In this document: piece by piece, positions 3,905 to 45,360 of the stretch
Layout of the letters: each line of letters begins with the position of its first letter
Numbering within the stretch: position 1 is the first letter of the stretch
From: a virus
Taxonomy: Duplodnaviria; Caudoviricetes
DNA length: 64,000 nt
Virus record (IMG/VR): IMGVR_UViG_3300037047_000246
Strand: one strand, 5' to 3'
The notes under the pieces: generated by a model
What the model was told of the DNA's origin: nothing
The model's database searches: none
The model's input: only the letters and a program-made list of their open reading frames with translations
Translations under genes and position numbers: made by a program

Positions 3905-3970
3905 TCCTGGGTTGGTTGTCTGCTCGCTGCTCGGTACGCAGCAAGCCGCCCAGCTTCCGCCACTCACTGA
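3905..3970 (-). promoter_or_regulatory. CGTAC-class element with C/A-rich leader
   Basis: CGTACCG then AGACAACCAACCCAGGAG; upstream box weak. Confidence 0.5.
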
Positions 3971-4248
3971 GACTGCACTTTATACACCTCGGCATCAAGC
4001 AGCAGCTGGGCGGCTTGCTCGTCGGTCAGCGCTAAACGCCGGCTTTTGGTGGCAGGCACAACCGCCCAACACTGCTGGCAATACCGGGTTAGAACGGTGT
4101 TGAACTGGTCTGGATTTTGGTCATCCTCGCACCAGAACACCACCCACTGGGTGGGCAGGTTGAGGCATCGGTGGCGCCACCGGGCCGGGCATGACCGGCC
4201 GCAGTCATCGGTGTTGTAAACGAATCGTCCAGTAATTTCTATCATCAT
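3964..4248 (-). CDS. Cys-rich hypothetical, tag (..AEVYKVQSQ)
   Basis: AGGAG SD; several Cys pairs; tag. Confidence 0.7.
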   Translation of the reverse strand: MMIEITGRFVYNTDDCGRSCPARWRHRCLNLPTQWVVFWCEDDQNPDQFNTVLTRYCQQCWAVVPATKSRRLALTDEQAAQLLLDAEVYKVQSQ

Positions 4249-4410
4249 GCGAGGAGCTCCTTGGGTCTACTGCAGGCCGCGCAAAGTTTCCAGGCGCGAC
4301 GCTGCTGCGGCGGCGCGGGCGGCGGGCCGAGCGAGCGGCGCGCGGCGCGCGGAGCGCGGCGCGCGGACGGCCCAAGCGCTCGGCGGCGCGAGCCAGGCGC
4401 GCGGCGCCGC

Positions 4411-4908
4411 TCATGACTCGTGCACCAGTTCCACTTGAACTTCGCTTACCGTTTCCAGCATCTGCTCGTGCGTGCCGCCCCGCTTGAAGAACGTCCGAAC
4501 GGCACGTTGCAAATTATCTTTTGCTGACCTCAAAGCCTCTTCGGCGTTTGAGGCGTCTGCTTGGGCGAACTGCTCTGGCGGAATGGAGGCGACGAACTCG
4601 ACGAACTTTTGCTGTAATATCAGGAAAGTTTGTTCGTAGTCTGATGACCAACTGTCGCAGCAAGTGTTGGCGTACTGCTGCAAACTGTTTGATATGATCT
4701 GCAGGTCTTCGGTGCGAGAAGGCTTTCTGAACGAAATGAACCAAGATGGCCTGGGGTCGTAGTCACCCAAGTGGGCCCGAGGCGTGTCGTACTTCGGATC
4801 TCCCGTGACGAACCTGGCCGACACCCTGGACCGGCTGAATACTCGGTCCAGCTCGAAGTGACCTTTCCGAGCCATTCGCTCCATGCGCTTGCGATCTCTA
4901 TCATTCAT
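4411..4908 (-). CDS. hypothetical, extended tag (..GGTHEQMLETVSEVQVELVHES)
   Basis: ORF track; tag. Confidence 0.8.
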   Translation of the reverse strand: MNDRDRKRMERMARKGHFELDRVFSRSRVSARFVTGDPKYDTPRAHLGDYDPRPSWFISFRKPSRTEDLQIISNSLQQYANTCCDSWSSDYEQTFLILQQKFVEFVASIPPEQFAQADASNAEEALRSAKDNLQRAVRTFFKRGGTHEQMLETVSEVQVELVHES

Positions 4909-4940
4909 TTTGAGGCAAGCAGCTTGCTAAAAACTCAGAA

Positions 4941-5363
4941 TCACTCATTGTGGATGATCTCCACTTGGAGCTCGGGGCTGTACGGCCCGGACTCGTCTTG
5001 GGCCGACGGGGTCTGTCGGCCCAAAATGTGGCCGAACAGCTCGGTGAGCACGAGCACATCGTCCTCGTTCCTGTCGAACGGCAGGCGCAGCTTTTCGGCC
5101 ACGTAGTTAGGCGCCAGGTACCCGGCCGGAGCCAGCACGCAGCAGCGCCCGCTGCAAGCGCCGTCCGCGAGCGACACCACGAACGAGCCGGGAAAGCATC
5201 CGATCCCTTCTTCTGCGCCCCCGGGCACCTGCACGAACGACACCACATACCTGGAGCCGTTGCCCGGCTGGTACTCGAGCAGCACCTGGCGGGAGAACAG
5301 CCTGGTCGGGTCGTGATGATCGCGGATCCAGCAGATGGACTCTTGAATCGTCTTGGTTCGCAT
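4941..5363 (-). CDS. hypothetical, tag (..ELQVEIIHNE)
   Basis: GAGGTGA SD; tag. Confidence 0.75.
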   Translation of the reverse strand: MRTKTIQESICWIRDHHDPTRLFSRQVLLEYQPGNGSRYVVSFVQVPGGAEEGIGCFPGSFVVSLADGACSGRCCVLAPAGYLAPNYVAEKLRLPFDRNEDDVLVLTELFGHILGRQTPSAQDESGPYSPELQVEIIHNE

Positions 5364-5372
5364 TCAGTCACC

Positions 5373-5573
5373 TCAACTGTTGTGCACGAGCCACAGCTCG
5401 GCTTCTCGCTCTGTGATTTCCGTATTCGCAAACAGCCAGCGCCCGTCCGGGTGTGGGCAATCGTCTTCTGCGTGCCATTTGCACCAGGCTACAAGCTCCT
5501 GCCCTAGTGTGGCAAACCGGACAGCTGTGCAGCGGCATTTGCGGTCGTCATCGTCCACGTAGTTGCAATTCAT
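5373..5573 (-). CDS. small Cys/His putative Zn-binding protein, tag (..EAELWLVHNS)
   Basis: C..C...CxxH pattern shared with paralogs. Confidence 0.75.
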   Translation of the reverse strand: MNCNYVDDDDRKCRCTAVRFATLGQELVAWCKWHAEDDCPHPDGRWLFANTEITEREAELWLVHNS

Positions 5574-5683
5574 GACTCTTGCACCGCCTCGACCACGGTC
5601 TCTTTGACGAGCTCGGCCAGCTCCTGCTCAAGCTCGTCGGTGTCGGCCCCGGCGGCGTCAGTCAGCTTTGATGCACCAGCCAT
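5570..5683 (-). CDS. 37-aa tag-only micro-ORF
   Basis: MAGASKLTDAAGADTDELEQELAELVKETVVEAVQES*, manual translation. Confidence 0.6.
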   Translation of the reverse strand: MAGASKLTDAAGADTDELEQELAELVKETVVEAVQES

Positions 5684-5856
5684 ACCTCGGCCTCTTGTTC
5701 GGTCACTTCAGCATACAGGAACAGCCAAATGCCGCTTGCGTTCAAACCAAGCGCGTAATGCGCCTCGCACCTGGTCACCAAATAACCGTCGCCCGTCAGG
5801 GCGAACCGGACAGCTGGTCCGTTGCAGTACTCGGTTTCTGAGTGGTTGCATTTCAT
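5662..5856 (-). CDS. small Cys/His putative Zn-binding protein, tag (..EAEVWLVHQS)
   Basis: paralog of 5373-5573. Confidence 0.75.
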   Translation of the reverse strand: MKCNHSETEYCNGPAVRFALTGDGYLVTRCEAHYALGLNASGIWLFLYAEVTEQEAEVWLVHQS

Positions 5857-5866
5857 GGTGCCAATC

Positions 5867-6337
5867 TCACGACTGGTGCACTCCCTCGCAAATGGCTTCC
5901 CTCACGAGCTGCTGCAGCTGCTTTTGCGTCATGCCGCGGTTGACCAGATCTTGCACTTGCTCCTTGAAAGCTCGGCACTTCAGTTCCAAATTCCTTTTGT
6001 CCAGTGCCCGGCGTGAAGACTTGGCGCCGGCGGCAGCTTGGCGCAGGGCCTTCGCCACAGCTTTTTGCTGACCAGAGTCGGCTCTGGCCTCGTTTGCCCG
6101 AGCGGCCACCTGGCCGGACAGCTGAGCGGCGTCCTGCTCGGACAAGCAGACTCCGAAAGACAACGCCCAAGCGCGCAAGTGCTCTTTGGTTTTGTCAACG
6201 TCTCCTGAGTCCAGAACTTTGCACTCGACATATTTGCTGCCTGCAGCGGACTTGAACAGCACCGGCACGGACACTGGCACGGACACTTTGCCGGAGCCGT
6301 CCATCCAGAGTTTGCCGAGTCCAACCTCAAACTTCAT
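5867..6337 (-). CDS. hypothetical, extended tag (..GMTQKQLQQLVREAICEGVHQS)
   Basis: start MKFEVG after AGGAG SD and promoter motif. Confidence 0.8.
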   Translation of the reverse strand: MKFEVGLGKLWMDGSGKVSVPVSVPVLFKSAAGSKYVECKVLDSGDVDKTKEHLRAWALSFGVCLSEQDAAQLSGQVAARANEARADSGQQKAVAKALRQAAAGAKSSRRALDKRNLELKCRAFKEQVQDLVNRGMTQKQLQQLVREAICEGVHQS

Positions 6338-6360
6338 TACTAGCTCCTTCTTCCCCGGCT

Positions 6361-6400
6361 CGGTACGCGCGGCGCGCGGCGCCTTGCGCCGGCGCTCAAG
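6361..6400 (-). promoter_or_regulatory. bipartite promoter-like element
   Basis: TTGAGC-N26-CGTACCG; 39/40 identical to 17775-17814. Confidence 0.7.
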
Positions 6401-8443: not shown

Positions 8444-9424
8444 TCACTCGGCCATCATGGTGTAAATTTGAAGGAGCGGGATAGCGGCCAGAGCGATGCC
8501 CTTGCCTTTGTGCTCGTGGCGCGCCACGACTTTGGTCATCTCGTAAAGGGCATTCGAAGCCGCGCGGTTGTTTTGATCCCAGCCGTAACCCATCCGAAGC
8601 TTGTCCCAGCTCCAGCGGCGCTCGTTGTAATCCTGGTGCGCCACAGTCATGAGGCGGGCCAAGTCTTCGGGCTCGGGCAGCTTCATGCCTTTGGGCCAAT
8701 GCTGTTCGACGACCTTGACAAACGTCTGGGCGAAGTCGTCCTTGCCCTTGGAAATGAGCTTTTCGATTCGGCGGTCAATCGCCTCCTTCTTCGAGACCAG
8801 GACCTCGGGCCAGGCAACGGCCAGGCGCTGCTGCAGGTCCGCGAAGTGCGGGCTGTTGGCAGCCAACCAATCCAATTCAATCCACTGCTCGAACTCCTTG
8901 GCCACTCGGGTCTCGATCACCAGCGGCGACAGCCCATCTCGCACCAGCTCGAACTTCGGCTGCACCAGCACGCTGCCTTGCTCCTCGACCGGGTCCGGCG
9001 CGTGCTCTCGCTTGTGCGTGGCCATGATGTCTCGAAGCTTGAATTCGATGGGCGCCGAGAGCCATTGCACGGCGCGGTCGCACTCGGCAGGCGCGGTCGC
9101 CCGCGCTCGCTGCCGGAAGGCATATTCGAAGCCGCTCATCTGGCGCGCTTGCGGCCACAGGCTGTCGATGAGCCCGGCCAGGGCTTCAGGCTGCATCTGG
9201 GTGGCCAGCTTGGCCGTTTGCAACAGGAGGCTGCCTTTTGGCGGCGCATACCCCCAGGCGGAGCACTCTCCGCCGCAAGCAATCCTGTAGCCTTCGACCA
9301 GGTCTGTGCCGTTGGTCAGCAGCACCCGGTGCTCAGCCAGCTTGCCTCGGATCTCCCCAAGATCGATCAGGCACATGACGCGCTGCAGCAAGTCGTTGAG
9401 TTCGGCAGGCATCTGCTCGAGCAT
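8444..9424 (-). CDS. hypothetical protein, 326 aa
   Basis: GAGGTGA SD; long ORF. Confidence 0.85.
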   Translation of the reverse strand: MLEQMPAELNDLLQRVMCLIDLGEIRGKLAEHRVLLTNGTDLVEGYRIACGGECSAWGYAPPKGSLLLQTAKLATQMQPEALAGLIDSLWPQARQMSGFEYAFRQRARATAPAECDRAVQWLSAPIEFKLRDIMATHKREHAPDPVEEQGSVLVQPKFELVRDGLSPLVIETRVAKEFEQWIELDWLAANSPHFADLQQRLAVAWPEVLVSKKEAIDRRIEKLISKGKDDFAQTFVKVVEQHWPKGMKLPEPEDLARLMTVAHQDYNERRWSWDKLRMGYGWDQNNRAASNALYEMTKVVARHEHKGKGIALAAIPLLQIYTMMAE

Positions 9425-9428
9425 TCGG

Positions 9429-9481
9429 TCACCTCTTTGGCGGGTACGCGGGAGGGCGGCGCACTGCCGCCCTCCCCTCAG
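9429..9481 (-). promoter_or_regulatory. bipartite promoter-like element with 11-bp inverted repeat spacer
   Basis: CTGAGG-N27-CGTACC; GGGAGGGCGGC/GCCGCCCTCCC. Confidence 0.65.
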
Positions 9482-11895: not shown

Positions 11896-12088
11896 AATCC
11901 CACCAATGGACGTCGTCTTCGTGCCCGGAGTTCCAGCCGCACCGCCTCAGCTCCGCCAGCTCTTCTGCGGTGAAGCTGGATGGAGGCGGGGTCCCGATGC
12001 ACAGCCAGCCTTCGTGCAGGCTCGGGTTGCCGACTGCCCTCGGAGCCAGGATTGCCAGACCTCGAGCCAACATCTCGTTCCTGTTCAT
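11876..12088 (-). CDS. small hypothetical
   Basis: GGAGGTGA SD, promoter motif upstream. Confidence 0.75.
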   Translation of the reverse strand: MNRNEMLARGLAILAPRAVGNPSLHEGWLCIGTPPPSSFTAEELAELRRCGWNSGHEDDVHWWDFRIEEK

Positions 12089-12095
12089 GCTGCGG

Positions 12096-12148
12096 TCACC
12101 TCCGCGGTCCGGTACGCGTGGCGCAGCCAGATCGCTGCCTGGCTTCAA
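12096..12148 (-). promoter_or_regulatory. bipartite promoter-like element
   Basis: TTGAAG-N26-CGTACCG...GGAGGTGA. Confidence 0.7.
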
Positions 12149-12342
12149 ACCTGGTGCACCAGCCAGCATTCAACTTCTTCGCGCGTCAGAACAGGTATGC
12201 CATATCGCCGCATCTCTTCATCTGTTATGTAAATGTTGCGATGTGCCGGACACACCGCGATGAGAGCGAGTCCGGCATTCACCAGATGAAAGTGTGTGGG
12301 CGGACTTTTACAACCATGGGCTCTGCAAGAAATGTCAACCAT
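12145..12342 (-). CDS. small Cys/His putative Zn-binding protein, tag (..EVECWLVHQV)
   Basis: CRAHGC..CPAH; tag. Confidence 0.75.
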   Translation of the reverse strand: MVDISCRAHGCKSPPTHFHLVNAGLALIAVCPAHRNIYITDEEMRRYGIPVLTREEVECWLVHQV

Positions 12343-13613: not shown

Positions 13614-14057
13614 TCACGTCTCCTCCTTGCGGCGTTCGACCAGTTGAGCCAGCTTCAAGGCCAGGTCCCTCAGATCTCCGTAAGGCAGCGTCAGCGACAT
13701 CTCGTACAGCGACTGGACTTGGTCCTTGGGGCGGGCCTCGATCACTTCCAGAGAGTACAGCTCGCCGAGCTGCGGGTTCATGGTCCGGTACCCTCCCTCG
13801 ACCAACTGGCTGTCGACCACGCGGTCGCGATTGTACGCCATGATCGTCAGGACCACCTCGCCCTTTCGAGTCATCCACAGCGACTCGAACGTCCCGACGT
13901 AGTGGCGCCTGGCCAGGCCTTCTTGCAAAGTGGCTCGCTCGCTCTCCAAGACGGCCTGGCCGGTCGGGGGCCGTCCGGCCTTGTACGACACGAACAGCAC
14001 GGATCCGCGTCCGCAATCGGCCAGGGCTTCAATCATCTCTCGTTCGGTCATCGGCAT
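13614..14057 (-). CDS. hypothetical phage protein
   Basis: GGAGGTGA SD, promoter motif upstream. Confidence 0.75.
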   Translation of the reverse strand: MPMTEREMIEALADCGRGSVLFVSYKAGRPPTGQAVLESERATLQEGLARRHYVGTFESLWMTRKGEVVLTIMAYNRDRVVDSQLVEGGYRTMNPQLGELYSLEVIEARPKDQVQSLYEMSLTLPYGDLRDLALKLAQLVERRKEET

Positions 14058-14062
14058 GTGCG

Positions 14063-14116
14063 TCACCTCCGCAGCCCGGTACGACTCGCCGAGCGCGATC
14101 TGCGCCGGCGCTTCAA
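14063..14116 (-). promoter_or_regulatory. bipartite promoter-like element
   Basis: TTGAAG-N27-CGTACCG; near-identical to 14879-14930. Confidence 0.7.
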
Positions 14117-16963: not shown

Positions 16964-17001
16964 CCGAAGCGCAGGGGCAAGCAGGGCGCGTCGCGAGTAC
17001 G
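16964..17001 (+). promoter_or_regulatory. rightward bipartite element of divergent pair
   Basis: CCGAAG-N26-AGTACG. Confidence 0.55.
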
Positions 17002-17008
17002 CGAAGAC

Positions 17009-17779
17009 ATGAACAACCGACTGCGCGCCATTTGCGACAAGTTGCCCTGGACGTTCGAAACGTCTGCCGGACGGGACGAGCGGACGAGAGACATCGTGCT
17101 CGGTCTGGGCGATCTTGCCGCTCTCGGGCGCCGGGCGCAGAAAGCGCTCGACGAGCTCGAGCGCTCAGGCAGCTTCAGGGGCCTAGCCCCCTACCTGAAG
17201 ACCAACGAAGGGCGCATTGACCAGCTGAGGTTGGACGCCGCGTCCATGCCGCCTGCTGCAGAGCTCAGCCCAGCGCAGCTGCGCTGGGTGCGGCGCCTGA
17301 AGCTCGAGTGCGTGCGCATCGAACCGAGTTCGGCTTCCACGAGATGGGTAGCTCAACTGTGCGGAGTAGGCTACGATTGGGAGCCCCGCCGCAGCCGATT
17401 CGCAATTGTGCGGACGCAAGTGCAAGTGGCTGCGGCAGTAATTGCCCCATCGCGCAACCACTGCGATTCGTACGCCATAGGGTCTTTCGGTCCAGATCAT
17501 TTGACTCTGGACATGTCGGACGACAGCGCGCCGGAACTGGACCCTGCAAAGCTCGCTCAATCTGCAGCCGAACGGCTGGTGACCTGCTGCGATCGCGGCT
17601 TTCGCTCGGATATGGCCAATGTGCGGGTAGCCAGGAAGCAGGTGCAAGCGAAGCTTGTCGAATCCGGCAAGTGCCTCGAGTGGACGGAGATGTGCCGGGA
17701 AATGATCGCGAGCGCCAAGCGCGAAGCGATGGCGGGCGAGTATGGACAGCAAGCCGTGAAGCACGTGATGGAGACTTGA
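17009..17779 (+). CDS. hypothetical, tag (..QQAVKHVMET)
   Basis: long ORF; tag. Confidence 0.8.
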   Translation: MNNRLRAICDKLPWTFETSAGRDERTRDIVLGLGDLAALGRRAQKALDELERSGSFRGLAPYLKTNEGRIDQLRLDAASMPPAAELSPAQLRWVRRLKLECVRIEPSSASTRWVAQLCGVGYDWEPRRSRFAIVRTQVQVAAAVIAPSRNHCDSYAIGSFGPDHLTLDMSDDSAPELDPAKLAQSAAERLVTCCDRGFRSDMANVRVARKQVQAKLVESGKCLEWTEMCREMIASAKREAMAGEYGQQAVKHVMET

Positions 17780-17815
17780 GCGCCGGCGCAAGGCGCCGTG
17801 CGCCGCGCGTACCGG
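17776..17815 (+). promoter_or_regulatory. bipartite promoter-like element
   Basis: TTGAGC-N26-CGTACCG. Confidence 0.7.
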
Positions 17816-17846
17816 GCAGCGGACAACAAACCAAGAGGCGAACGTC

Positions 17847-18188
17847 ATGGCGAGAAAAGGTTCCGAAGGAGAAGCGGTCGGCACTGTGTTGGACGTGATG
17901 GAAATCACCGGCGTGCTTCGCGGCAAGTCGTTCAGCATCACCGGACATCTGGGTTTGCCGCGCGACCAGGTGGTGGCCATCATTGAAAGGGCCGGGGGCA
18001 CGTTCCACAAGACTCCGACATACGGCACGACGTACCTGGTGACGAACCTCGATTGGAACGAGGGGTCCACTGTGGCGTCGGGCACGTCGCGCAAGTTGAT
18101 CAAGGCCCGCGAGATGGGCATCAAGATCTTGTCGGAAAAGCAGCTGCACGACATGATCACGGAGCTGGCCGAAGCGGACAGCAAATGA
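17847..18188 (+). CDS. stand-alone BRCT-domain protein
   Basis: LRGKSFSITG..RD..IERAGG..TTYLV..SRKLIKAREMGIKILSE, like the NAD-ligase C-terminal BRCT. Confidence 0.85.
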   Translation: MARKGSEGEAVGTVLDVMEITGVLRGKSFSITGHLGLPRDQVVAIIERAGGTFHKTPTYGTTYLVTNLDWNEGSTVASGTSRKLIKAREMGIKILSEKQLHDMITELAEADSK

Positions 18189-20444: not shown

Positions 20445-21416
20445 TTACTTCTTGTGTTTGGCCGCCCACTCCTCAAGCGTCGGGATCTTGACGGGACCGC
20501 TGTTGGTCTTGATAGCTTCGTGCGAGTAGTGCTCCATCAGCACGCGCCACAGAGCGACGCGCGCTGCTGGGTGCTTGGGAACGATCCAACCTTTCTCAAC
20601 GCGATCGAAGAAGGCGCGGGGGATGGCGCCGCAGGCTCGCCCGAACTCTCGGGTCCAGCTGGCGCGCTTGATCCAGACATGGTGGTTGCCCGCATGCAGC
20701 TTGGAATCTTTGATCTGACCAATGACCAGCGAATTCCGCAGGGTATTGGCGAGACGCCCGTATCCGAGCATCTCAATAGCATTGCAACAGGCCGGGTGCA
20801 CCGGCGATTTGCGATTCAGAGCTGCGATGCGCACCAGGCCGTTCATCAGACCGCGCAGGCCAAACGGCTTGTAATGCTCTATCAGAAATTCGACCAGAGC
20901 CGGGTACTCCGCGAGCTCGATCATTGCACCCATTTCGTCAGAGTCTATGGGATCCTCGGCATATCCCTTGCCGGCGCAGTCCGGTCCCAAACATCGCTGG
21001 ATGCTCAGTGCATCGGTCAGCGGCATGCCGCAACTGATGCACTTCTCCGCGATGCCGTTCAGCACCATCGTGCCGTGCACCATCTTCTCGGTCGAGATGG
21101 CCCCGACGATCGCCTTGGACAGCTCCAGGCGGCGGGCCTTCTGCTCCGCGGTCTCGGCCTGAGCGGCCGGGGCGGCCTGAACGGCGGGGGCTTCGACTTC
21201 GGGGGCGGACTCGGCCTGAATGGCCGCGCGCTCCTGCCTGTCGAAGTCCTTCTCGAGCTGCACGGCCTGCTCCTCGCGGCCCTCTTCGGCTGCTGCAGCA
21301 GCCTCTTCGGCTTGGGCGATCTCGGCCAGGTCAGAAGAGGCTGGGGGCGGCTCGCTCGCTGGCTCGCTCGCGCCAGAAATGAGTGCATCCAACTGCGCCA
21401 AGAAACTGTTCGACAT
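20445..21416 (-). CDS. DUF6011-like Zn-motif protein with acidic N-terminus
   Basis: CISCGMPLTDALSIQRCLGPDC. Confidence 0.7.
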   Translation of the reverse strand: MSNSFLAQLDALISGASEPASEPPPASSDLAEIAQAEEAAAAAEEGREEQAVQLEKDFDRQERAAIQAESAPEVEAPAVQAAPAAQAETAEQKARRLELSKAIVGAISTEKMVHGTMVLNGIAEKCISCGMPLTDALSIQRCLGPDCAGKGYAEDPIDSDEMGAMIELAEYPALVEFLIEHYKPFGLRGLMNGLVRIAALNRKSPVHPACCNAIEMLGYGRLANTLRNSLVIGQIKDSKLHAGNHHVWIKRASWTREFGRACGAIPRAFFDRVEKGWIVPKHPAARVALWRVLMEHYSHEAIKTNSGPVKIPTLEEWAAKHKK

Positions 21417-21420
21417 GCTG

Positions 21421-21473
21421 TCACCTCCGCTCCTCGGTACGCGCACAGCGCGCACACTTACGATTTCGTTCCA
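21421..21473 (-). promoter_or_regulatory. bipartite promoter-like element
   Basis: TGGAAC-N26-CGTACCG...GGAGGTGA. Confidence 0.65.
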
Positions 21474-21569
21474 CTCGCGGTCCTGCTCTGCTATGACCTG
21501 CTGCTTGATGGCTCCCATACGGTCACCTACTGCAAATGTGCCGGGATTTACAGAGTTCAGCAGTTTGCG

Positions 21570-29769: not shown

Positions 29770-29856
29770 TCACCTCATTGGGTTGGTTGTCTGTCGGGGC
29801 TCCATCGCCCCATCCGCCGATACGCGGCACGGCGGCGCGCCTCCGCCACCTTTTGA
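29770..29856 (-). promoter_or_regulatory. CGTAT variant element with C/A-rich leader
   Basis: TCAAAA-N26-CGTATC; CAGACAACCAACCCA; GAGGTGA. Confidence 0.5.
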
Positions 29857-29871
29857 GCAGTACGGTACCAC

Positions 29872-33985: not shown

Positions 33986-33987
33986 TT

Positions 33988-34039
33988 CTGAAGATCGCCG
34001 GAGCTGCGCGCCCGCTGCGCGTACTGGACCAGGAGGTGA
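33988..34039 (+). promoter_or_regulatory. bipartite promoter-like element
   Basis: CTGAAG-N26-CGTACTG...GGAGGTGA. Confidence 0.7.
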
Positions 34040-34044
34040 CCCGC

Positions 34045-34440
34045 ATGGCGAAATTCGTAGAGGTTCCCGCAGCAGCAATCGAACAACCCTTGCAAGCGCT
34101 AGGGTTCCGCCGCGTGTGCACGCACGGCCAGGTCGTGTACATCAAAGAGCACGACTGCTGCCGCAACGTGCTGGTCAAAGTGTACACTTCGATCCCGTAC
34201 TCTTTGGTTGCTCCGGCGGGCGCCGAAGCCGTCCGCCGAGCGGGAAAGGACTCCATCCGGGTGTGTTGCGCCTACGAGAGCTCGGTCAAGAACTTCGGCA
34301 TTGGCAAGTTCCCTTACATCGCCCGGGTGGGCACGGTCGAAGGCGTCGTGCAGCGCATGCTTGAAACCGTCAAGGCGGCATGGGTACGCGGCCAGGATTG
34401 GTTCGACGGCGTCCAGGTCAAGCAGGTGATGAGCGCATGA
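34045..34440 (+). CDS. hypothetical, tag (..GVQVKQVMSA)
   Basis: SD; tag. Confidence 0.8.
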   Translation: MAKFVEVPAAAIEQPLQALGFRRVCTHGQVVYIKEHDCCRNVLVKVYTSIPYSLVAPAGAEAVRRAGKDSIRVCCAYESSVKNFGIGKFPYIARVGTVEGVVQRMLETVKAAWVRGQDWFDGVQVKQVMSA

Positions 34441-35495: not shown

Positions 35496-35717
35496 ATGGG
35501 AACCTTTGACTGCTCTTGGTGCGGCAGCCCGGCAACGCAGTTCGTGGTGCAGGGCCTGCGCATCGTCTGGCACCGGTGCGAGCGCCACAAGTTGGAAAGG
35601 TCGCTGTCTGGCTCCGGCTGCACGGGAGGGACAAGCGGCTATATCGGCGGAGCAGTTTTCACGAACGAGCAAGATGCGCTGAACTTCATCTACGTCCGGC
35701 GCGTTCAAGAGGGCTAG
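35496..35717 (+). CDS. small Cys/His putative Zn-binding protein, tag (..FIYVRRVQEG)
   Basis: CSWCGSPATQF..RCERH. Confidence 0.75.
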   Translation: MGTFDCSWCGSPATQFVVQGLRIVWHRCERHKLERSLSGSGCTGGTSGYIGGAVFTNEQDALNFIYVRRVQEG

Positions 35718-35769
35718 TCATAGCCCGGCGGAACTGCGCGCGACTCGTGCGTACCGGACTGCGGAGGTG
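35718..35769 (+). promoter_or_regulatory. CGTAC-class element
   Basis: CGTACCG...GGAGGTGA; upstream box weak. Confidence 0.55.
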
Positions 35770-35839
35770 ACGGTATGCCGAAGACGAAGCTGACTGAATT
35801 CCGTCTCTCCGACGAGGATCAGGACGAGGAGGTGACAGT

Positions 35840-37918: not shown

Positions 37919-37952
37919 CTACTAATCGCCCGGACTGGGCGAAGGAGGGCGA

Positions 37953-38342: not shown

Positions 38343-38374
38343 GGTGTCCGGCCATCCAGAATATGCAACATCCC

Positions 38375-39063: not shown

Positions 39064-39068
39064 CTGGC

Positions 39069-39290
39069 ATGGCGGAGAAGAAAGACACCTACTTCAAGCT
39101 CAATTTGGATCAGGTGGACGAGATCCTGTCCGAATTCGGCATGACGGTGCAGCAGGCTAAGAATGTTGGAGCGGGTGTCCGACGCGCTGGACGAGGCGGC
39201 GAAGGTCCGCAGGGAGCTCGACGAGATGCGCGAAGACCGCTCCGGAGGCCGCTTCCGAGGGTATCCGGTGCAATCCTACACTATCTCTGA
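39069..39290 (+). pseudogene. hypothetical, frameshift near 39162
   Basis: QQAK|MLERVSDALDEAAKVRREL continues in another frame. Confidence 0.5.
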
Positions 39291-39339
39291 GGCCCGCCGC
39301 AGGTCAGCGCGCCTGGCGCGTACTGGGCCAGGAGGTGAC
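39287..39339 (+). promoter_or_regulatory. bipartite promoter-like element
   Basis: CTGAGG-N26-CGTACTG...GGAGGTGA. Confidence 0.7.
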
Positions 39340-39343
39340 TCGC

Positions 39344-39757
39344 ATGCCGAGAGCGAAGCAAGCCAAGAGCAGAGCAGCAGTCGCGCAGGTGATGCTCGAC
39401 CTGCCCGAGGACCTGAAGGCGCCGGAGGGTTTGTCCGAGCGCAGCCTGCAGGCCTGGGAAACCATCGTGCAGTTCCTGGTCGCCAACGACCTGACTTACA
39501 CTGGCGGCTGCGGGGCGTTCATGGACCCGAAGGAGTGGAAGGAACGCGGCGGCGAGTATGGAACGGAGTCCGTGCTCGTCATCTTCCACGAGGGCTCCGA
39601 GGTCGGCCAAGCGTTCTCGATGGACGACTGCTACGAGCGCGGAGGCGGGGCGAACTGCTACGCCAAGCTCGAGGCGATGTCGGACGAGCTGGCGAAGATC
39701 GGGCTGTTCGCCGAGCAGTGCACGCGGCGCTACTCGGCCGTCTACGAAATCAAGTGA
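39344..39757 (+). CDS. hypothetical phage protein
   Basis: SD and promoter motif. Confidence 0.8.
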   Translation: MPRAKQAKSRAAVAQVMLDLPEDLKAPEGLSERSLQAWETIVQFLVANDLTYTGGCGAFMDPKEWKERGGEYGTESVLVIFHEGSEVGQAFSMDDCYERGGGANCYAKLEAMSDELAKIGLFAEQCTRRYSAVYEIK

Positions 39758-39766
39758 GGTGGCGCC

Positions 39767-39979
39767 GTGAAGAAAGCGATGCTCAAGCGACTGGGACTGA
39801 AGAGCGTGACTCCTTGGAGCAACGGCCGAGATCCTACGGAGTTCGGGTGGGTCATCGATGGCGAGAACTGGACGGCGGACAGCCTGAACGCAGATAACGC
39901 TCCGGGAAATCTCGTCGACGTGGCCAAAGAAGAGGGATATGGCGACGACGTAACGGGGTTTCTGCAAGACCGCTGCTGA
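39767..39979 (+). CDS. small hypothetical
   Basis: GAGGTG SD. Confidence 0.65.
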   Translation: MKKAMLKRLGLKSVTPWSNGRDPTEFGWVIDGENWTADSLNADNAPGNLVDVAKEEGYGDDVTGFLQDRC

Positions 39980-40046
39980 CTGCGCAGTATATGCCAGGCA
40001 GTTCGCGAATATGTGCCATGACATGCGCCCGTACGCGCGGAGTCCG

Positions 40047-40100
40047 CCGAATCCAGCCGGGAGCCGAGCGGCGCCCGCCGTACCGGGCGCAGGAGGTGAC
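40047..40100 (+). promoter_or_regulatory. bipartite promoter-like element
   Basis: CCGAAT-N26-CGTACCG...GGAGGTGA. Confidence 0.6.
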
Positions 40101-40103
40101 GAA

Positions 40104-40424
40104 ATGTCGAGCCAGACCAAGCCGTACCGAGCAGCGGGCATCTTCTACACGACGTACCAGAATGAACCGTCGCAGCCGTTCTGCCTGGAGCTGCGCCGCG
40201 GCCAAGCGGCCGAAGACTTGGCAGAGTTTTACCGCAAGTCCTGCCAGGATCCGGAGGATCCGGACGCGTTTCAGCCGGGCGTGCTGTCGGCCGAGGAGTA
40301 CTACGGAGACGTCGCGATGCGCGGGCCTGACGACGAGGAGTCCGAGATCCTGTTCGTGACGTTCGCCGACGAGGACCGGGTCGAGGCGCTGGCCGAGCTC
40401 GACTTGCCGGCAGAGGAGTCATGA
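40104..40424 (+). CDS. acidic hypothetical protein
   Basis: SD and promoter motif. Confidence 0.75.
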   Translation: MSSQTKPYRAAGIFYTTYQNEPSQPFCLELRRGQAAEDLAEFYRKSCQDPEDPDAFQPGVLSAEEYYGDVAMRGPDDEESEILFVTFADEDRVEALAELDLPAEES

Positions 40425-40864
40425 AAGTCAAGCTTGTCAAGCTCGAGCTAATACATACCGGCGCGGCCATCGTGGACGTGGCGTTCCTGCTGCCAGGGTG
40501 CAAACGCAGCCGCGAGGTCAAGTTCTTCGTCCGAATGCAGGGCGGCGTCCTCGCCGTCGATGTGCATCCGATTCCGCTCAGCGTGCCCAAAAACATCAGG
40601 CAGCGGCTTGGAGAGGCAGGTTGGGAGCGCATCCGTGCCGAGAGCTTCCGGCTATTCGCAGAAGCCGGAGGTCCGAAAGCCCTAGCCGAGCGCATGACCA
40701 AAAGCGAAGCAGAAGACCGCCAGCGCCTGATCCAGGAGGCCACCACATCGGTGAAGTATGCTGCGGCGAAGCTGCTGCGGTGCAAGCTGGGATGCCAAGA
40801 TGCAGAGGACATCGTTCGAGATGTGGTTCGAGAAGTGTTCGTCAAACAAGTCATGCAAAGCTGA
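40421..40864 (+). CDS. hypothetical, extended tag (..DIVRDVVREVFVKQVMQS)
   Basis: ATGA overlap; tag. Confidence 0.8.
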   Translation: MKVKLVKLELIHTGAAIVDVAFLLPGCKRSREVKFFVRMQGGVLAVDVHPIPLSVPKNIRQRLGEAGWERIRAESFRLFAEAGGPKALAERMTKSEAEDRQRLIQEATTSVKYAAAKLLRCKLGCQDAEDIVRDVVREVFVKQVMQS

Positions 40865-41171
40865 CTTTTGAACACCCCCGGCTGAAGCGGATCGGAGGGC
40901 CGAGCGCTGCGCGCGTAGCGGCGAGTGCGACAGACGCGGGCAACGGCCGACGACCCGCCAACCAATTCGCTGAAACATGGAGGTCTGCATGCACTGGCAT
41001 TAGGCGTGACTCCGCAAGGGTGCCGCGTTCCGCTCGTGGCGGCGCCCCAGGAGAAGCAAGCGCGAGGGCCGGCGGACATGATCACTCCGTCGGATGGCGT
41101 GGCCGGGCATCCTCTGCAACCTTCGGGTCGACGCGGAGGCTGGCCCGGCCACCGTCGCGCCGGGGATCCCT

Positions 41172-41235
41172 TTTGAAGCCGACCTTCGAGCGCAACTGGA
41201 GGTCGGGCCGGCTCGCGCGTACCGAGTGCAGGAGA
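41172..41235 (+). promoter_or_regulatory. 64-bp promoter cassette, copy 2
   Basis: 63/64 identical to 38375-38438. Confidence 0.75.
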
Positions 41236-41241
41236 TGACGC

Positions 41242-41619
41242 ATGGCGAAGAGAAAGACCCCTGAGCAGATTGTCGCCGAAGTGCATGAGCACAATCCGGA
41301 CGGGCTCGACATCGGCGTGCCGGTCGACTACGCGCCGTCCGACGGCGAGGTGGACAACATCGTCTATCTGGTGTGCAAATACGCCGCGAACTGGCCCATG
41401 CGCGGCGCGGACTTGGCCATCTGCAAGATGATGGCCGGCGAGATGCGAGGGCGCGAGGGCATTGAGCAGCTCGTGCGCGTGACGTGCGAGTACGTCTGGG
41501 ACCATATCTGCGGCGAGCCCAAGAAGCCGACGGCCAAAGACTTTTTCAAGCACATGAAGCCTCTTCTCGAGGAGTGGTATAGCAAAACCTCGGCGGACGA
41601 CAGGAGCAAAACGTCATGA
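41242..41619 (+). CDS. hypothetical protein
   Basis: AGGAG SD; N-terminus resembles 42100 ORF (AEVHE). Confidence 0.8.
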   Translation: MAKRKTPEQIVAEVHEHNPDGLDIGVPVDYAPSDGEVDNIVYLVCKYAANWPMRGADLAICKMMAGEMRGREGIEQLVRVTCEYVWDHICGEPKKPTAKDFFKHMKPLLEEWYSKTSADDRSKTS

Positions 41620-41687
41620 CCCGTGCTCGACCTGTGGCGCGAGGTGATCGCCAGAGATCTCGGAGCCTTGAGTTGAAGGAGGATGGA

Positions 41688-41807
41688 ATGAAGGCACTGC
41701 TGGCGAAGTATGGGATGACTCCGGAGCAAGTATACGAAACCGGTGTGTTTTGTGCGTTGGATCTGTGTGCAAGACTCATAATCTTGCAGCCACGACGCAG
41801 ATCGTAG
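41688..41807 (+). pseudogene. 5' remnant of DUF4116-like family gene
   Basis: MKALLAKYGMTPEQVYETGVFCALDLC. Confidence 0.65.
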
Positions 41808-41846
41808 CCCGGCTGACGTATCGCCCGCCGGAAGGAGCAAGAAGTC

Positions 41847-42077
41847 ATGATTCAGATCACCACCATCACGCGCGGCTACTTGACTCACGCCGACCGCAAG
41901 CGCGCCATCAAGCACCTCCGTCGCCGCGGCTATGATCACTTCGTCGAGTACCGGGACACGGCCGCGAAGTACGCGCTGTGCTACGGCAAGTACATCCGGC
42001 TCGAGCGGATGCAATGCCAGGACCTGCTCGGGCTGGCCGCCGGGCCGGTCCAGCTTCCCCTGGCAGGAGTTCGGTGA
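41847..42077 (+). CDS. small hypothetical
   Basis: AAGGAG SD. Confidence 0.6.
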   Translation: MIQITTITRGYLTHADRKRAIKHLRRRGYDHFVEYRDTAAKYALCYGKYIRLERMQCQDLLGLAAGPVQLPLAGVR

Positions 42078-42099
42078 TGTCCGGCGGGAGGGACGACTG

Positions 42100-42462
42100 A
42101 TGACAGACGAAGACAAACTGATTGCCGAAGTGCACGAGGAAGAGATCAAGAAGATCTTTCTGTTCGTCCGCGGTCCGCTGGACAATGCCATATCTTGGGC
42201 TGAGCTCTGGACTCAGCGGCAGGCTGAGGACTACGTCAAGCACGACCTGGCGAAAGCCGGCGTTCTAGGGAAGCCTTTCGAATCGTACAGGGTGGAGCGC
42301 CACCGGGAAGAGAGCGAGGTCTCCATCTTGATCTGGGGCGAAGACAGTCCGAGCGTCCAGCTCGACGACTACGGAGACAAGAAAGGCCTGCTCGTAAAGC
42401 TGGATGGCAAAGAAGTCTTCAGCAATCTTCGACCCATCGAAGATGATGAGGAGGTCGAATGA
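42100..42462 (+). CDS. hypothetical protein
   Basis: GGAGG SD. Confidence 0.75.
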   Translation: MTDEDKLIAEVHEEEIKKIFLFVRGPLDNAISWAELWTQRQAEDYVKHDLAKAGVLGKPFESYRVERHREESEVSILIWGEDSPSVQLDDYGDKKGLLVKLDGKEVFSNLRPIEDDEEVE

Positions 42463-42902
42463 AGACCGTGCTCACCATCGGCGGGTTCATCGCGGCGGCG
42501 GTCTTGGCTTGCATGGCTCTGGTCTTGGTGGGGGCCTTGAACCTGGTGCTCAACGGCTACCACTCGGAGTGCGGCATCTGGGAGAACGCGGTGCCGTTCG
42601 CTTGCAACCCCGGCAAGAAGCCTGAGGGGAAAGCCAACGTCGCCCGCCCTGCCCCGCCCGCCAAGGCCTCCTTGAAGGCGTCCGCCGCGCCGCAAAGGCC
42701 GGCCGGCCGCCTCGCGCCGCAGAAAGCAGCCGCAGTTTCAAAGCCCTCAAACAATCCGTACACGGGCCGGCGAGAGCCTTGGGGCTGCGGCCCGCTTCAA
42801 GCCGAGCCTTACCGGGTGCAGTGCGTCAACGGGATCTGCTACCACGACCCTGGATTTCGCGCAAACTGCGGCCTGGCGCACGACTGGAGGGACGGGCAAT
42901 GA
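42459..42902 (+). CDS. secreted or membrane-anchored Cys/Pro/Ala-rich protein
   Basis: hydrophobic N-terminus, Cys pairs. Confidence 0.7.
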   Translation: MKTVLTIGGFIAAAVLACMALVLVGALNLVLNGYHSECGIWENAVPFACNPGKKPEGKANVARPAPPAKASLKASAAPQRPAGRLAPQKAAAVSKPSNNPYTGRREPWGCGPLQAEPYRVQCVNGICYHDPGFRANCGLAHDWRDGQ

Positions 42903-43505
42903 AGACTCGGCAAGAGTTGCTGAACTTGATCCAGCAGTCGTCCGACGACCTGCTCAAAGCGATGTCGGATGCCGTTCAGCTACATAGGCATAATGTCAAC
43001 AGTCAGCTGCAGCAAGAGCAAAAAATATAAGAAGCCCGCAATCGCATCGCGAAAGACCGTGCGGGCTTCAAGCGGCTTCTGCTGCGCTCGAAGCTGCAGG
43101 TGGCCCGGGTCAAGGGCTATGAGCTGCGCAAGTGGAATCTGCGTTTGATCGACGCCAGCCCGGTCGCCCAAGTCCCGGTCGTGCACGAGATCACGCTCTG
43201 CTCGGGCGACTACAGCGACTACAAGCTCGAGGAGCTGCTGCGAATTGCGGTGGCCAAAGAATACCAGGTGCCATGGTTTATGGGTAGTAACGGGCAAAAG
43301 ACTCGAAGTTGCCCGAAGCATGCATCCGGACGTCTGGTCCAAGGCGATGAAGCGGCTGCGCCGCAAGGCCGCTTGGATGACCGCCATGGACGCGGCCCGA
43401 TGCACGGCCAACCCGGCCGCACAGCACATGTCCAAAGACAAGCTGCTGGAGCTGGTCGGCCGCGCGTACGACAACGTGGTCCTGAAAGCAGTGCAGGATG
43501 TCTGA
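42899..43505 (+). pseudogene. tagged gene (..NVVLKAVQDV) with in-frame TAA at 43028 and frameshift near 43280
   Basis: three ORF-track pieces join into one reading frame. Confidence 0.7.
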
Positions 43506-43866
43506 GCGCCTCAGGCCGTCCAGACGCCAGCTGGCGCAGGAGCTTGAAATGAGCGTCGAGATTCTGGAGTTCATGTTGGGTCTGGACCACTTCAGGCTGC
43601 GCTGGCGCAATCCGCTGCACGGCCCGGAGCGCAGCGAAGTCTACCGGTTCAGGCTCACTCCGGGCCGCAAGCAGCTGTCTGTGGCCACGACCGGATTCCC
43701 TTCGTTTGCGCCTCCGCCCGAGCTGCGCCAAGCGCTGGAAAAAGCCGGACACTGGACGGCGATCCGAGACCAGCTGATTCGCCAGGAGCTGGATGCCCTG
43801 GCCGCGCAATTCGGCGAGACGGTGCTGGCGCAGATTATGAAGTCAAGACGCGGCAGGCGCACTTGA
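43498..43866 (+). CDS. hypothetical protein
   Basis: coupled start. Confidence 0.65.
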   Translation: MSERLRPSRRQLAQELEMSVEILEFMLGLDHFRLRWRNPLHGPERSEVYRFRLTPGRKQLSVATTGFPSFAPPPELRQALEKAGHWTAIRDQLIRQELDALAAQFGETVLAQIMKSRRGRRT

Positions 43867-44129
43867 CAGCAAGGGCAGTGTTTGATCTTTCATTTGCGGC
43901 AACCTGCATGAGCAACATTCACGTGCGCGTCGCCGCTAGGGCGATTCAAGCAGCTCGATTCGAAGTCGATGGCCAGCCGTTCGACGAGCTTTATCTGGCT
44001 GCCCAAGAGGCGGAGTTTGCCCACTCGGACGACGGACAGCCGCACCAAGTGCTGGCCGTCGTGGACGACGAGCACGGCATGTTTTCGGCTGGAGAAGTGG
44101 TCTACACGTCCAAAGGCGCGCCGGAGTAG
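43863..44129 (+). CDS. small hypothetical
   Basis: coupled TTG start. Confidence 0.55.
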   Translation: MTARAVFDLSFAATCMSNIHVRVAARAIQAARFEVDGQPFDELYLAAQEAEFAHSDDGQPHQVLAVVDDEHGMFSAGEVVYTSKGAPE

Positions 44130-44187
44130 CCGCGCAGGCTTGCATGCTTGGCGCGCAGGTGCGCTGTAAAGTCAGGGAGGTGACAAC

Positions 44188-44340
44188 ATGCACGCCTGCG
44201 GAAACCCTTTGCACGACGTTCCCCTGTACATCGTCATGGCGCTGCCGTTCTTGGCGCCCCTGCTGGTGTGGCTGAAGATGAAGTTCGGCCGCCGCTGCGA
44301 ATGCGGACACGACCACGCGCAAGACCACGAGCATACCTGA
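44188..44340 (+). CDS. 50-aa membrane peptide with His-rich tail
   Basis: GGAGGTGACAACATG; MHACGNPLHDVPLYIVMALPFLAPLLVWL..HDHAQDHEH. Confidence 0.65.
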   Translation: MHACGNPLHDVPLYIVMALPFLAPLLVWLKMKFGRRCECGHDHAQDHEHT

Positions 44341-44353
44341 CTTCGTCTGCGCG

Positions 44354-44406
44354 TCGAAGGGCCGGAGGAGATGCGGCGCGGCGGCGCGTACCTGTGCCGA
44401 GAGGTG
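44354..44406 (+). promoter_or_regulatory. bipartite promoter-like element
   Basis: TCGAAG-N27-CGTACC...GAGGTG. Confidence 0.65.
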
Positions 44407-44410
44407 CCGC

Positions 44411-44689
44411 ATGCTTCGAGATCGCAAAAATTTGAAGGACCTGGAGTTTGCAGCTGTGCTGCAGTTCGGCGTTCAGGCGGCGCGCTTGCGGTGCACTTCG
44501 GCTGAGCAAAACAGTCTGGGGTTTGTCAATCTCGACAAATCTGGCAATTCGACGCATGAGCAGTTGTCCATATCGTTCATGTCGTCCCGCGAAGTCGGGT
44601 TCGACCGGGTCATGTGCGGACTGTTGCACGCTGCTTACGGCGAGCAGTTCACTGGCTACAGGCATGACTACTGGATGCAATGCGGCTAG
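44411..44689 (+). CDS. small hypothetical
   Basis: SD and promoter motif. Confidence 0.65.
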   Translation: MLRDRKNLKDLEFAAVLQFGVQAARLRCTSAEQNSLGFVNLDKSGNSTHEQLSISFMSSREVGFDRVMCGLLHAAYGEQFTGYRHDYWMQCG

Positions 44690-44787
44690 CCACCATCTGC
44701 CTGAAGCTGGCGGCGTTCCTGGACATGATTGAAGTGGACGCACTTTGAGAGGTCATAAGAACAACGAGTAGGCTGAGGAGAAGCGTC

Positions 44788-45036
44788 ATGGACCCGAACG
44801 CAGCACGGATGAGGCAAGCGCAGAAGCAATTGGCTGCAGACTGGAACAAGAAACACCGAGTGGGTACGCCAGTGCGATACTGGCTCTCTGACAAACAAGT
44901 CGCGGCCGACGGCGAATCGGTCACAGGGACCGGGTCCGCAGTGCTGGGAGGCCGGGCAGGCGTGTTCGTGAAGGGTGTGGCGCATTTTGTGCCGCTGGAA
45001 ATGCTCGAGCCGATAGAGCCTGAGCAAAAGAGCTGA
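44788..45036 (+). CDS. small SH3-like phage protein
   Basis: WN..H.VGTPVRY..LGG.AGVFV.G. Confidence 0.65.
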   Translation: MDPNAARMRQAQKQLAADWNKKHRVGTPVRYWLSDKQVAADGESVTGTGSAVLGGRAGVFVKGVAHFVPLEMLEPIEPEQKS

Positions 45037-45038
45037 TT

Positions 45039-45311
45039 ATGAACCAGTTCAAGTTCAAGTTCAAGCCCGAGCGCGACGCCAAGGGCAACGCCGTCTTTGA
45101 TCCGCACCGCCCGTGGTGCTGCTGCTGGTCAGCAGCAGGCTTCTGCGGCCGACCAGCCAGGTTCTTGTGGTGCAACTTGGCGCGCCCCTCGCTGCAGGTG
45201 GGAGGAGGTGTGATGGCGCTGTGCAATCAGCACAACTGGAAGGCAGGTTACGACCAGTGGCGCCGAGTGACGGCCGACGAGCTGGACGTGCTGCTGGTGC
45301 ATGAGGTCTGA
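45039..45311 (+). CDS. small Cys/His putative Zn-binding protein, tag (..ELDVLLVHEV)
   Basis: CCW..CGRPARF..LCNQH. Confidence 0.75.
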   Translation: MNQFKFKFKPERDAKGNAVFDPHRPWCCCWSAAGFCGRPARFLWCNLARPSLQVGGGVMALCNQHNWKAGYDQWRRVTADELDVLLVHEV

Positions 45312-45360
45312 AGCCGGGCGAAGGCCGAGCCCGCTCGCGCGTACCGAGGGGTGGAGGAAC
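45308..45360 (+). promoter_or_regulatory. bipartite promoter-like element
   Basis: CTGAAG-N26-CGTACCG...GGAGG. Confidence 0.7.

Follow-up and report, generated by a model that had tools for sequence, protein, structure and literature searches.

A repeated promoter-like cassette with extracytoplasmic function (ECF)-like boxes in a clade of uncultivated huge phages

Introduction

What reads a short DNA element that recurs about 25 times in front of the small genes of a single phage, and with what geometry is it read? The question is raised by a stretch of 64,000 nucleotides (nt) from an uncultivated virus of the Caudoviricetes (IMG/VR record IMGVR_UViG_3300037047_000246), called the window here, which corresponds to bases 265,348-329,347, read on the reverse strand, of a complete virus record of 362,524 bp. 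The genome, designated G000, has direct terminal repeats and a G+C content of 57%, and, among the public runs, the stretch is present in six groundwater or coal DNA metagenomes, with no RNA run listed as containing it. An earlier note on the sequence described the element as at least 24 copies of YGA[AG][GC]-N26/27-CGTAC[CT]G and took it for a promoter whose two boxes resemble those of an ECF sigma factor, set one helical turn too far apart.

The analysis described here arrives at another geometry. At a probability of about 0.7, the cassette represents a class of transcription promoter common to a clade of uncultivated huge phages, with ECF-like boxes, a start at +13 and a phage-encoded sigma factor as its reader. 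Coordinates within the cassette count from the C of CGTAC, which is position 0. The core, shared by G000 and no fewer than nine related huge phages, consists of CGnARRT at -21..-15, 14 nt, CGTA(C/T)(C/T), a pyrimidine at +12 and a purine at +13. The related phage records to which individual results refer are designated G001, G002, G003, G007, G008, G016, G018 and G019.

The conserved core and its spacing

The element is non-random: the window contains 31 occurrences of CGTACYG, against an expectation of 7.3 and a maximum of 14 in 100 shuffles. From a list of all CGTACY sites with their flanks, 21 copies in G000 were picked by hand and an information profile was built from them; CGTA is present in 21/21, the set having been selected on CGTAC. 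Three parts are visible in this profile. A distal box lies furthest upstream (T-32, R-30, A-29, R-28, S-27), followed by a central box (R-23, C-21, G-20, A-18, R-17, R-16, T-15) and then, after a stretch of G and C only, by G-1 and CGTACCG. The region between the distal box and CGTAC, formerly described as an almost pure G/C spacer, is therefore not mere filler, since the conserved box R-23 n C-21 G-20 n A-18 R R T-15 sits inside it. Downstream, GGAGGTGA begins at +13, and the start codon lies around +25. The Shine-Dalgarno (SD) sequence and start codon reported to follow the element do so at a fixed distance, with GGAGG beginning 13 nt after the C of CGTAC; the layout in the gene block is GGAGGTGA-N4-7-ATG with the first G at +13.

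An exact-pattern scan of IMG/VR located the cassette in three other large phage contigs. In scans of the whole records, the copies were clustered in a single region per contig; these regions were then compared, together with those of four more phages. The logos of G001 (68% G+C), G002, G003 (46%), G008 (40-53%) and G016 agree on C-21 G-20 n A-18 R R T-15, 14 nt, CGTA(C/T)(C/T), Y+12 and R+13. The consensus of the central box is CG(G/T/C)A(A/G)(A/G)T, in which A-18 is present in 14/21 copies of G000; in the relatives' logo sets, A-18 and CGTA were fixed by the search pattern. Against a reversed-pattern control, CGNARRT-N14-CGTAY gave counts of 35:0 in G002, 35:0 in G008, 51:1 in G016, 18:0 in G001, 17:0 in G018 and 15:0 in G019. 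The spacing in CGnARRT-N14-CGTAYY is invariant across the five relatives, as is typical of a sigma-70-family or ECF-type promoter, and the CGT core expected in an ECF-type -10 box is present. G007 is the exception: its -10 box has A or C as the first base, and because it often starts with A this phage seemed to be motif-free when only CGTA-based patterns were used.

A position weight matrix (PWM) provides a cross-validation, as it was trained only on the central and CGTA boxes of the relatives. It produced 35 matches of at least 14 bits in G000, compared with 2 in a null sequence; among the matches listed at 11 bits or more, 27 lie inside the gene block. The number of copies first reported thus holds for the whole cassette (21 by eye and 25-27 by the PWM trained on other phages), and not for the pattern as it was written, which has 10 matches in the window.

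ECF promoters have spacers of 14-17 bp (PMC5758882). In the phage core, the distance amounts to 15 nt from the GGAAG pentamer to CGTA, or to 17 nt between the hexamers CGnARR and TACCGR. This is the ordinary ECF range, and the true -35 box most likely lies inside the supposed spacer. Judged from the logos of the five relatives, the conserved partner of CGTA is the central box CGnARRT, 14 nt upstream, and not a box displaced by one helical turn. The likeness of the CGTA box itself to ECF promoters, already pointed out in the earlier note, is upheld.

Proposed transcription start and leaderless genes

The simplest reading of position +13 is that it is the start of transcription. The SD sequence begins at this position in 127/218 strict instances and the start codon in 22/218, and the first GGAG or GAGG is at +13 in 130 of 175 instances. 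In addition, 26 open reading frames (ORFs) of 50-678 codons, eight of them in G008, start exactly at +13. A pyrimidine occupies +12 in every selected copy of G001, G002, G008 and G016, followed by a purine at +13; pyrimidine-purine is the usual preference for -1/+1 at transcription starts. This reading is suggested by the fixed position of the SD sequence or start codon, by the conserved Y+12/R+13 and by a separate class of leaderless genes in G000 with the same distance from box to start. The latter, a second promoter-like class, has the form G-TAnnnT-N5/6-ATG and comprises 54 genes, 49 of which have a G directly before TA, without conservation of a -35 box. Examples in the window are found at 29872(+), 28514(-) and 15864(-), and the homing-endonuclease genes inside the block also use it. 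Taken at face value, it implies that leaderless mRNAs are widespread in G000.

In the proposed mechanism, CGnARRT (-21..-15) would act as the -35 box at -34..-28 from the predicted start, followed by the 14-nt spacer and by the -10 box CGTA(C/T)(C/T) at -13..-8, which is sharpened in G000 to GCGTACCG. The mRNAs of the block would begin with the first G of GGAGGTGA and have a leader of 11-14 nt. Elsewhere in G000 and in the relatives, the same promoter places the ATG at +13, which would give leaderless mRNAs. The reader would be a phage-encoded sigma factor, and about 25 copies would switch on the units of a block of small accessory genes.

Candidate sigma factors

G000 encodes two group-3-like sigma factors of 278 and 258 residues, and a protein of 247 residues in which Pfam detects sigma region 2 only; the genome has three Sigma70_r2 matches. 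A further protein, of 557 residues (gene at genome 244,607-246,280), carries Sigma70_r4 at residues 421-468. Its score against the ECF model TIGR02937 is 41.7 bits over residues 328-469, just under the cut-off of 42.9 bits. The structure model of this protein has a predicted local distance difference test (pLDDT) score of 84.6. When the whole model was submitted to Foldseek, only weak E-values were returned; comparison at the domain level gave fold matches, which assigned residues 395-470 to a sigma-4 fold (Z 8-9.4) and residues 470-550 to a DnaA-domain-IV-like domain (Z 10-10.5, root-mean-square deviation 2.3 Å over 77 residues). More than 100 homologues exist, some of them labelled sigma-24 family by the Joint Genome Institute (JGI). 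A search for homologues in the motif-bearing records G001, G002 and G003 was positive in all three; the remaining records were located through this very protein.

The 557-residue ECF-like sigma is the best candidate for the reader, with a chance that we put at somewhat below even. Its own gene is preceded by a sigma-70-type promoter, TTGCAA-N17-TATTGT, which suggests a cascade in which a host sigma factor would drive the phage sigma and the phage sigma, in turn, the block. The search for sigma and RNA polymerase genes called for in the earlier note yielded these sigma-like proteins; no match to RNA polymerase beta (PF00562) was obtained in the G000 genome, and a multisubunit phage RNA polymerase as the reader was rejected on this ground.

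A host sigma factor, either ECF or another alternative one induced on infection, might read the promoter instead. The box types are generically ECF-like, and the phage sigmas are only candidate readers of the motif. However, the consensus does not change between phage regions of 40% and 68% G+C, which probably implies different hosts and argues for a reader encoded by the phage. These phages also encode three to four sigma-like proteins each, and the matches are concentrated, for the most part, in one or two stretches of a few tens of kb per listed record. A host reader is accordingly regarded as unlikely.

Two neighbours of the 557-residue sigma gene deserve mention. A second gene for a protein of 557 residues, without a Pfam match, follows it (genome 242,862-244,535). 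A PurA/PurZ-family adenylosuccinate-synthetase-like gene lies 3 kb away (genome 249,203-250,210); should 2-aminoadenine be present in the phage DNA, both the G/C-rich -10 box and the dedicated sigmas might reflect an adaptation to such modification.

Hairpins and signals at the RNA level

The cassette could also act in the transcript, as a signal for translation initiation or, in the manner of RNase sites, for processing, with the transcripts arising elsewhere. Two observations speak for this: the distance to the SD sequence and start codon is fixed, and a subset of the copies can form GC hairpins (z = -5.8 at 9448; in G001 and G002, duplexes reach -24.5 kcal/mol). At 9448, 14083/14897, 6367/17808 and 25140, a strong GC stem encloses the central box in its loop. 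Such stems are not general, however. Single-sequence folds average a z of about -0.9, pairing of cognate 5' and 3' arms has no overall advantage over non-cognate arms (p = 0.27), and by per-phage thresholds strong stems occur in 13/69 copies (G000 4/21, G002 5/15, G001 3/20, G003 1/13). For this reason, the hairpin was rejected as the defining feature. A hairpin promoter of the N4 type and an intrinsic terminator were rejected as well, given the arm test, the minority of stems and the absence of a U-tract from the cassettes.

The same boxes precede leaderless ORFs with their ATG at +13, where there is no room for a 5' RNA element, and back-to-back divergent pairs leave no space for an upstream promoter. 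In G001, two such cassettes (248,513(-) and 248,555(+)) fill the whole spacer from ATG to ATG; the G000 cassettes at 16903(-) and 33274(+) also lie in short divergent spacers. The pyrimidine and purine at +12/+13 fit initiation of transcription. A role restricted to RNA is hence very unlikely.

As a separate observation, a perfect GC stem of 7-11 bp brackets the -35 box, leaving it in the loop, in a minority of copies from several phages: G001 246086(-) and 246432(-), G002 333426(-) and 337949(-), G016 1038(-) and 14811(-), and 9448(-) in the window. It could represent an overlap of terminator and promoter, or might shield the upstream mRNA at its 3' end.

The distal box

The box at the far end of the cassette, yTGAAG, was the partner originally assigned to CGTAC, in a model in which the two, 26-27 bp apart, are read by a sigma factor, RNA polymerase or activator with extended reach. 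The box is real. The literal pattern has its 10 matches in the window, compared with 0.18 in Markov shuffles, and a single further one in the rest of the genome (11 in total); all the clean examples were found again at their coordinates. Positional enrichment of the upstream box, set beforehand as a refutation test, yielded a sharp peak at -31/-32 (10/31 sites, over a background of about 0-2 per offset). The box contributes about 5 bits in total and resembles a -35 box of the ECF or sigma-32 type. It recurs, more weakly but at the same position, in G007 (R-30 in 18/20 and A-29 in 13/20 of 20 cassettes), the closest relative of G000 by two marker proteins. The candidate sigma, moreover, has an extra DNA-binding domain behind sigma-4 in its predicted structure.

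Nevertheless, only G000 and G007 have the distal box. The logos of G001, G002, G008 and G016 show no conservation upstream of -23, and that of G003 at some positions only; yet the first four have the same CGTA box, spacing and SD position. The PWM, which does not include the distal box, recovers the G000 sites of the earlier note, and promoters of the same class outside the block of G000 lack it. At six G000 sites, its TGA is simply the stop codon of the upstream gene, often one ending in a V(H/Q)x(S/A) tag; at a dozen others, it takes a form such as TCGAAG or CTCAAG, and no stop codon is involved. With the central box at the canonical distance as the conserved partner, the long-spacer model is the least probable of all the explanations considered. 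The earlier observation holds up for the most part, its interpretation less so: a promoter read by a phage factor is supported, its unusual geometry is not. We conclude from the comparison that the distal box is probably a genuine accessory element, confined to one subclade and lying at about -45..-40 from the predicted start, and that it is not the -35 box.

A related reading of the upstream words TGGTGCA/CTTGAA as sigma-54 or sigma-32 elements was rejected, since TGGTGCA encodes the C-terminal tag (LVH/LVQ) and no CCCCAT-type -10 box stands behind. The conservation of TGGTGCA upstream of some cassettes is explained by CTGGTGCA, which encodes the C-terminal tag of the upstream genes.

The promoter of G000 and G007 might be truly tripartite, with the distal box placed 11 bp, or one helical turn, upstream of the -35 box and read by the DnaA-domain-IV-like domain behind sigma-4 of the 557-residue sigma, so that one polypeptide would contact three elements. 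We consider this doubtful. An alignment of the C-terminal domain showed no obvious signature specific to G000 and G007 that would explain the box. To our knowledge, no sigma factor carrying its own reader of an upstream element has been described; no paper on one was found in literature searches that were not aimed at this fusion.

Points weighing against the promoter model

Several results count against a phage-read ECF-like promoter with a start at +13. The central box has no conserved C after AA and no AAC core of the kind typical of many ECF promoters. It is also degenerate in G000, where CGNARRT-N14-CGTAY has 10 exact matches against 4 for the control. Two cassettes, 14897 and 38544, have no gene directly downstream. 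Finally, a canonical sigma-70-family factor and an orthologue of the 247-residue protein are also present in all complete relatives, and co-occurrence cannot single out the reader; assignment by this means was abandoned as uninformative, since these two proteins, like the 557-residue sigma, co-occur with the motif.

Comparison with known systems

The nearest parallel is offered by ECF promoters such as that of Bacillus subtilis sigma-W. The latter has a -10 box CGTA and a -35 box TGAAAC, and the iron-starvation box of PvdS reads TAAAT-N16-CGT (PMC5758882 and PMC2235872, respectively). Shared with sigma-W are the -35/-10 pair, the CGTA core of the -10 box, a purine-rich -35 box of the GAA type, a spacer in the ECF range (14 nt between heptamers), a high information content and a dedicated regulon. 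The phage -35 box, CG(G/T/C)A(A/G)(A/G)T, lacks the AAC core, and the -10 box is extended, to GCGTACCG in G000 and to CGTATYC in relatives. Relative to sigma-W (TGAAAC-N16-CGTA, as quoted in the earlier note) and PvdS, the phage spacing is 1-2 nt shorter, not 10 nt longer. The predicted phage start, unlike that of ECF promoters, falls exactly at the SD sequence or ATG, one subclade has a third upstream box, and the cognate sigma is only a candidate. With PvdS, the relatives' consensus CGTAAAT-N14-CGTAT shares the same two words in the same order; the spacer of the phage element, however, is shorter by 2 nt, and its setting is a phage and not a siderophore regulon.

Temporal promoter classes defined by phage sigma factors are known from SPO1 (gp28 and gp33/34), T4 (gp55) and phiEco32 (gp36). 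As in these phages, a lineage-specific consensus marks a co-regulated block, and the phage encodes sigma-like factors, one of them behind a host-type promoter. The consensus is a different one, and the lineage consists of uncultivated phages of 360-440 kb. We know of no counterpart, among phage sigma promoter classes, to the predicted fixed start at the SD sequence or ATG, or to the accessory distal box.

The start-associated sequences (SAS) and extended SAS (ESAS) of Cluster K mycobacteriophages are repeated motifs at a fixed distance from the start codon, which include the SD sequence and, in some cases, have an upstream inverted repeat. The phage cassette resembles them as a repeated unit with an SD sequence at a fixed start-codon distance, some copies having an inverted repeat. 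On the contrary, it is not tied to an SD-led start inside a transcript, as seen from the 26 leaderless ORFs and the divergent back-to-back pairs. Since it also precedes leaderless ORFs, forms such pairs and has a -35/-10 architecture, the cassette has the behaviour of a promoter rather than that of a translation signal. What is new is the consensus, its conservation across a clade of uncultivated phages of 180-440 kb, the predicted start exactly at the SD sequence or ATG, and the accessory distal box.

Copies in the window and their surroundings

The element, a promoter-like signal specific to the phage lineage, heads the transcription units of a block of small, often C-terminally tagged genes. 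This block is 42 kb long, two-armed and divergently transcribed, and has ~85 small genes, mostly ORFan, besides the DNA ligase, the BRCT protein and the AAA+/VWA pair. The copies are limited to genome 284,008-325,410 (window 3,938-45,340); genome-wide, no CGTAC copy with an SD sequence downstream occurs outside these limits. In the hand-listed set, minus-strand copies lie at 3938-25140 and plus-strand copies at 17808 and 30724-45340. Four sites that the earlier reader had missed, 29824(-), 31249, 38421 and 41817, were found by the PWM. The copies are, in window coordinates with the position of the anchoring C:

3892..3971 (-), C at 3938: central box CGGAAGC; long leader, ATG 3894, 234-residue gene; PWM 23.4 bits
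6335..6400 (-), C at 6367: distal box TTGAGC, its TGA being the stop of the upstream 177-residue tagged gene; central box CGCAAGG; ATG 6337
9422..9481 (-), C at 9448: 11-bp GC stem flanking the central box, the fold of z = -5.8; ATG 9424, 326 residues
10724..10784 (-), C at 10751: before the ATP-dependent DNA ligase gene (9485-10726)
12086..12149 (-), C at 12116: distal box TTGAAG, central box poor (CAGCGAT); ATG 12088; below the PWM cut-off
14055..14116 (-), C at 14083: distal box TTGAAG, central box CGCAGAT; ATG 14057; PWM 22.5 bits
14875..14930 (-), C at 14897: orphan near-copy of 14083, just downstream of the GIY-YIG homing endonuclease gene; only a 3-codon ORF behind; PWM 23.3 bits
16875..16936 (-), C at 16903: divergent intergenic region; ATG 16877
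16975..17011 (+): possible leaderless variant facing the 16903 cassette, GGCAAGC-N13-AGTACGCG-AAGAC-ATG(17009), read from sequence; geometry as in leaderless members elsewhere
17775..17849 (+), C at 17808: near-identical to 6367 on the opposite strand; before the BRCT-domain gene (17847-18188)
21414..21474 (-), C at 21441: central box CGTAAGT; ATG 21416; PWM 22.7 bits
25113..25173 (-), C at 25140: before the DUF2201 metallopeptidase/VWA gene (23535-25115)
29790..29857 (-), C at 29824: CGTATCG; upstream of the AAA+ ATPase gene (28659-29765); PWM only, 19.9 bits
30691..30750 (+), C at 30724: distal box TCGAAG, central box GGGAAGT; GTG 30748; PWM 21.8 bits
31216..31277 (+), C at 31249: CGTATTG; central box CGGAGCT; ATG 31275; found by PWM, 16.7 bits
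33241..33302 (+), C at 33274: fills the short divergent spacer beside an opposite-strand ORF
33987..34047 (+), C at 34020: distal box CTGAAG, central box CGGAGCT; ATG 34045
35717..35777 (+), C at 35750: central box CGGAACT; 22-codon ORF, then a 326-residue gene at 35840; PWM 20.2 bits
38388..38450 (+), C at 38421: CGTACAG; near-duplicate of 41218; found by PWM, 20.8 bits
38511..38570 (+), C at 38544: no start codon near; next called gene ~240 nt downstream; PWM 17.7 bits
39286..39346 (+), C at 39319: distal box CTGAGG, its TGA being the upstream gene's stop; central box CGCAGGT; PWM 22.4 bits
40046..40106 (+), C at 40079: ATG 40104
41185..41244 (+), C at 41218: central box TGGAGGT; ATG 41242; PWM 23.9 bits
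41784..41849 (+), C at 41817: CGTATCG; central box CGCAGAT; ATG 41847; found by PWM, 18.2 bits
44354..44413 (+), C at 44387: ATG 44411
45307..45369 (+), C at 45340: distal box CTGAAG, its TGA being the stop of the tagged upstream gene; central box CGAAGGC; PWM 20.4 bits

Some of these copies stand out. Three pairs are near-identical (6335-6400 and 17775-17849, on opposite strands; 14055-14116 and 14875-14930; 41185-41244 and 38388-38450), which suggests recent duplication or recombination of promoter modules. An origin of the copies from tRNA genes or mobile elements was rejected, as there is no tRNA in the window and, except for these pairs, the copies have only the boxes in common. The ~240 nt behind the 38544 cassette could contain a small RNA or a decayed gene. 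The 22-codon ORF at 35775-35843 starts at the canonical distance from the 35750 promoter, and its end overlaps the ATG (35840) of the 326-residue gene; it may be a leader peptide or a device for translational coupling.

The genes that can be named are those of an ATP-dependent DNA ligase, GIY-YIG and HNH homing endonucleases, an AAA+ ATPase beside a DUF2201/VWA protein, and a BRCT protein, a set typical of a huge phage; small ORFans are numerous. Many small proteins (window about 1049-45311) end in a tail that reads roughly (V/A)xE(V/A)(H/Q)(D/E/N/Q)(S/A)-stop. Outside the promoter block, a near-perfect 48-bp palindrome, CGTACCCATCCCGGATTTACGGGGCCCCGTAAATCCGGGATGGGTACG (window 48767-48860), adjoins an A+T-rich stretch of TATAC/ATACG repeats and could be a bidirectional terminator or an origin-like feature.

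Implications

Almost nothing is known about the timing of gene expression in uncultivated huge phages. The promoter model CGnARRT-N14-CGTAYY with a start at +13 was cross-validated, holds in at least 10 phage records of 180-440 kb and delimits, in each record, a co-regulated block of fast-evolving accessory genes. The idea of an ECF promoter stretched by one helical turn was attractive and is corrected here as wrong. The interest would rise if it were true that the DnaA-like tail of the sigma reads the distal box. Within the clade, the model can serve to delineate transcription units and to revise start codons. It also allows metatranscriptomes to be searched for the predicted 5' ends, and the unusual sigma-like proteins of the phage, one of which has a zinc-finger insertion and a DnaA-like tail, to be tested as readers. 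It predicts that the mRNAs of these phages would start exactly at the SD sequence or at the start codon.

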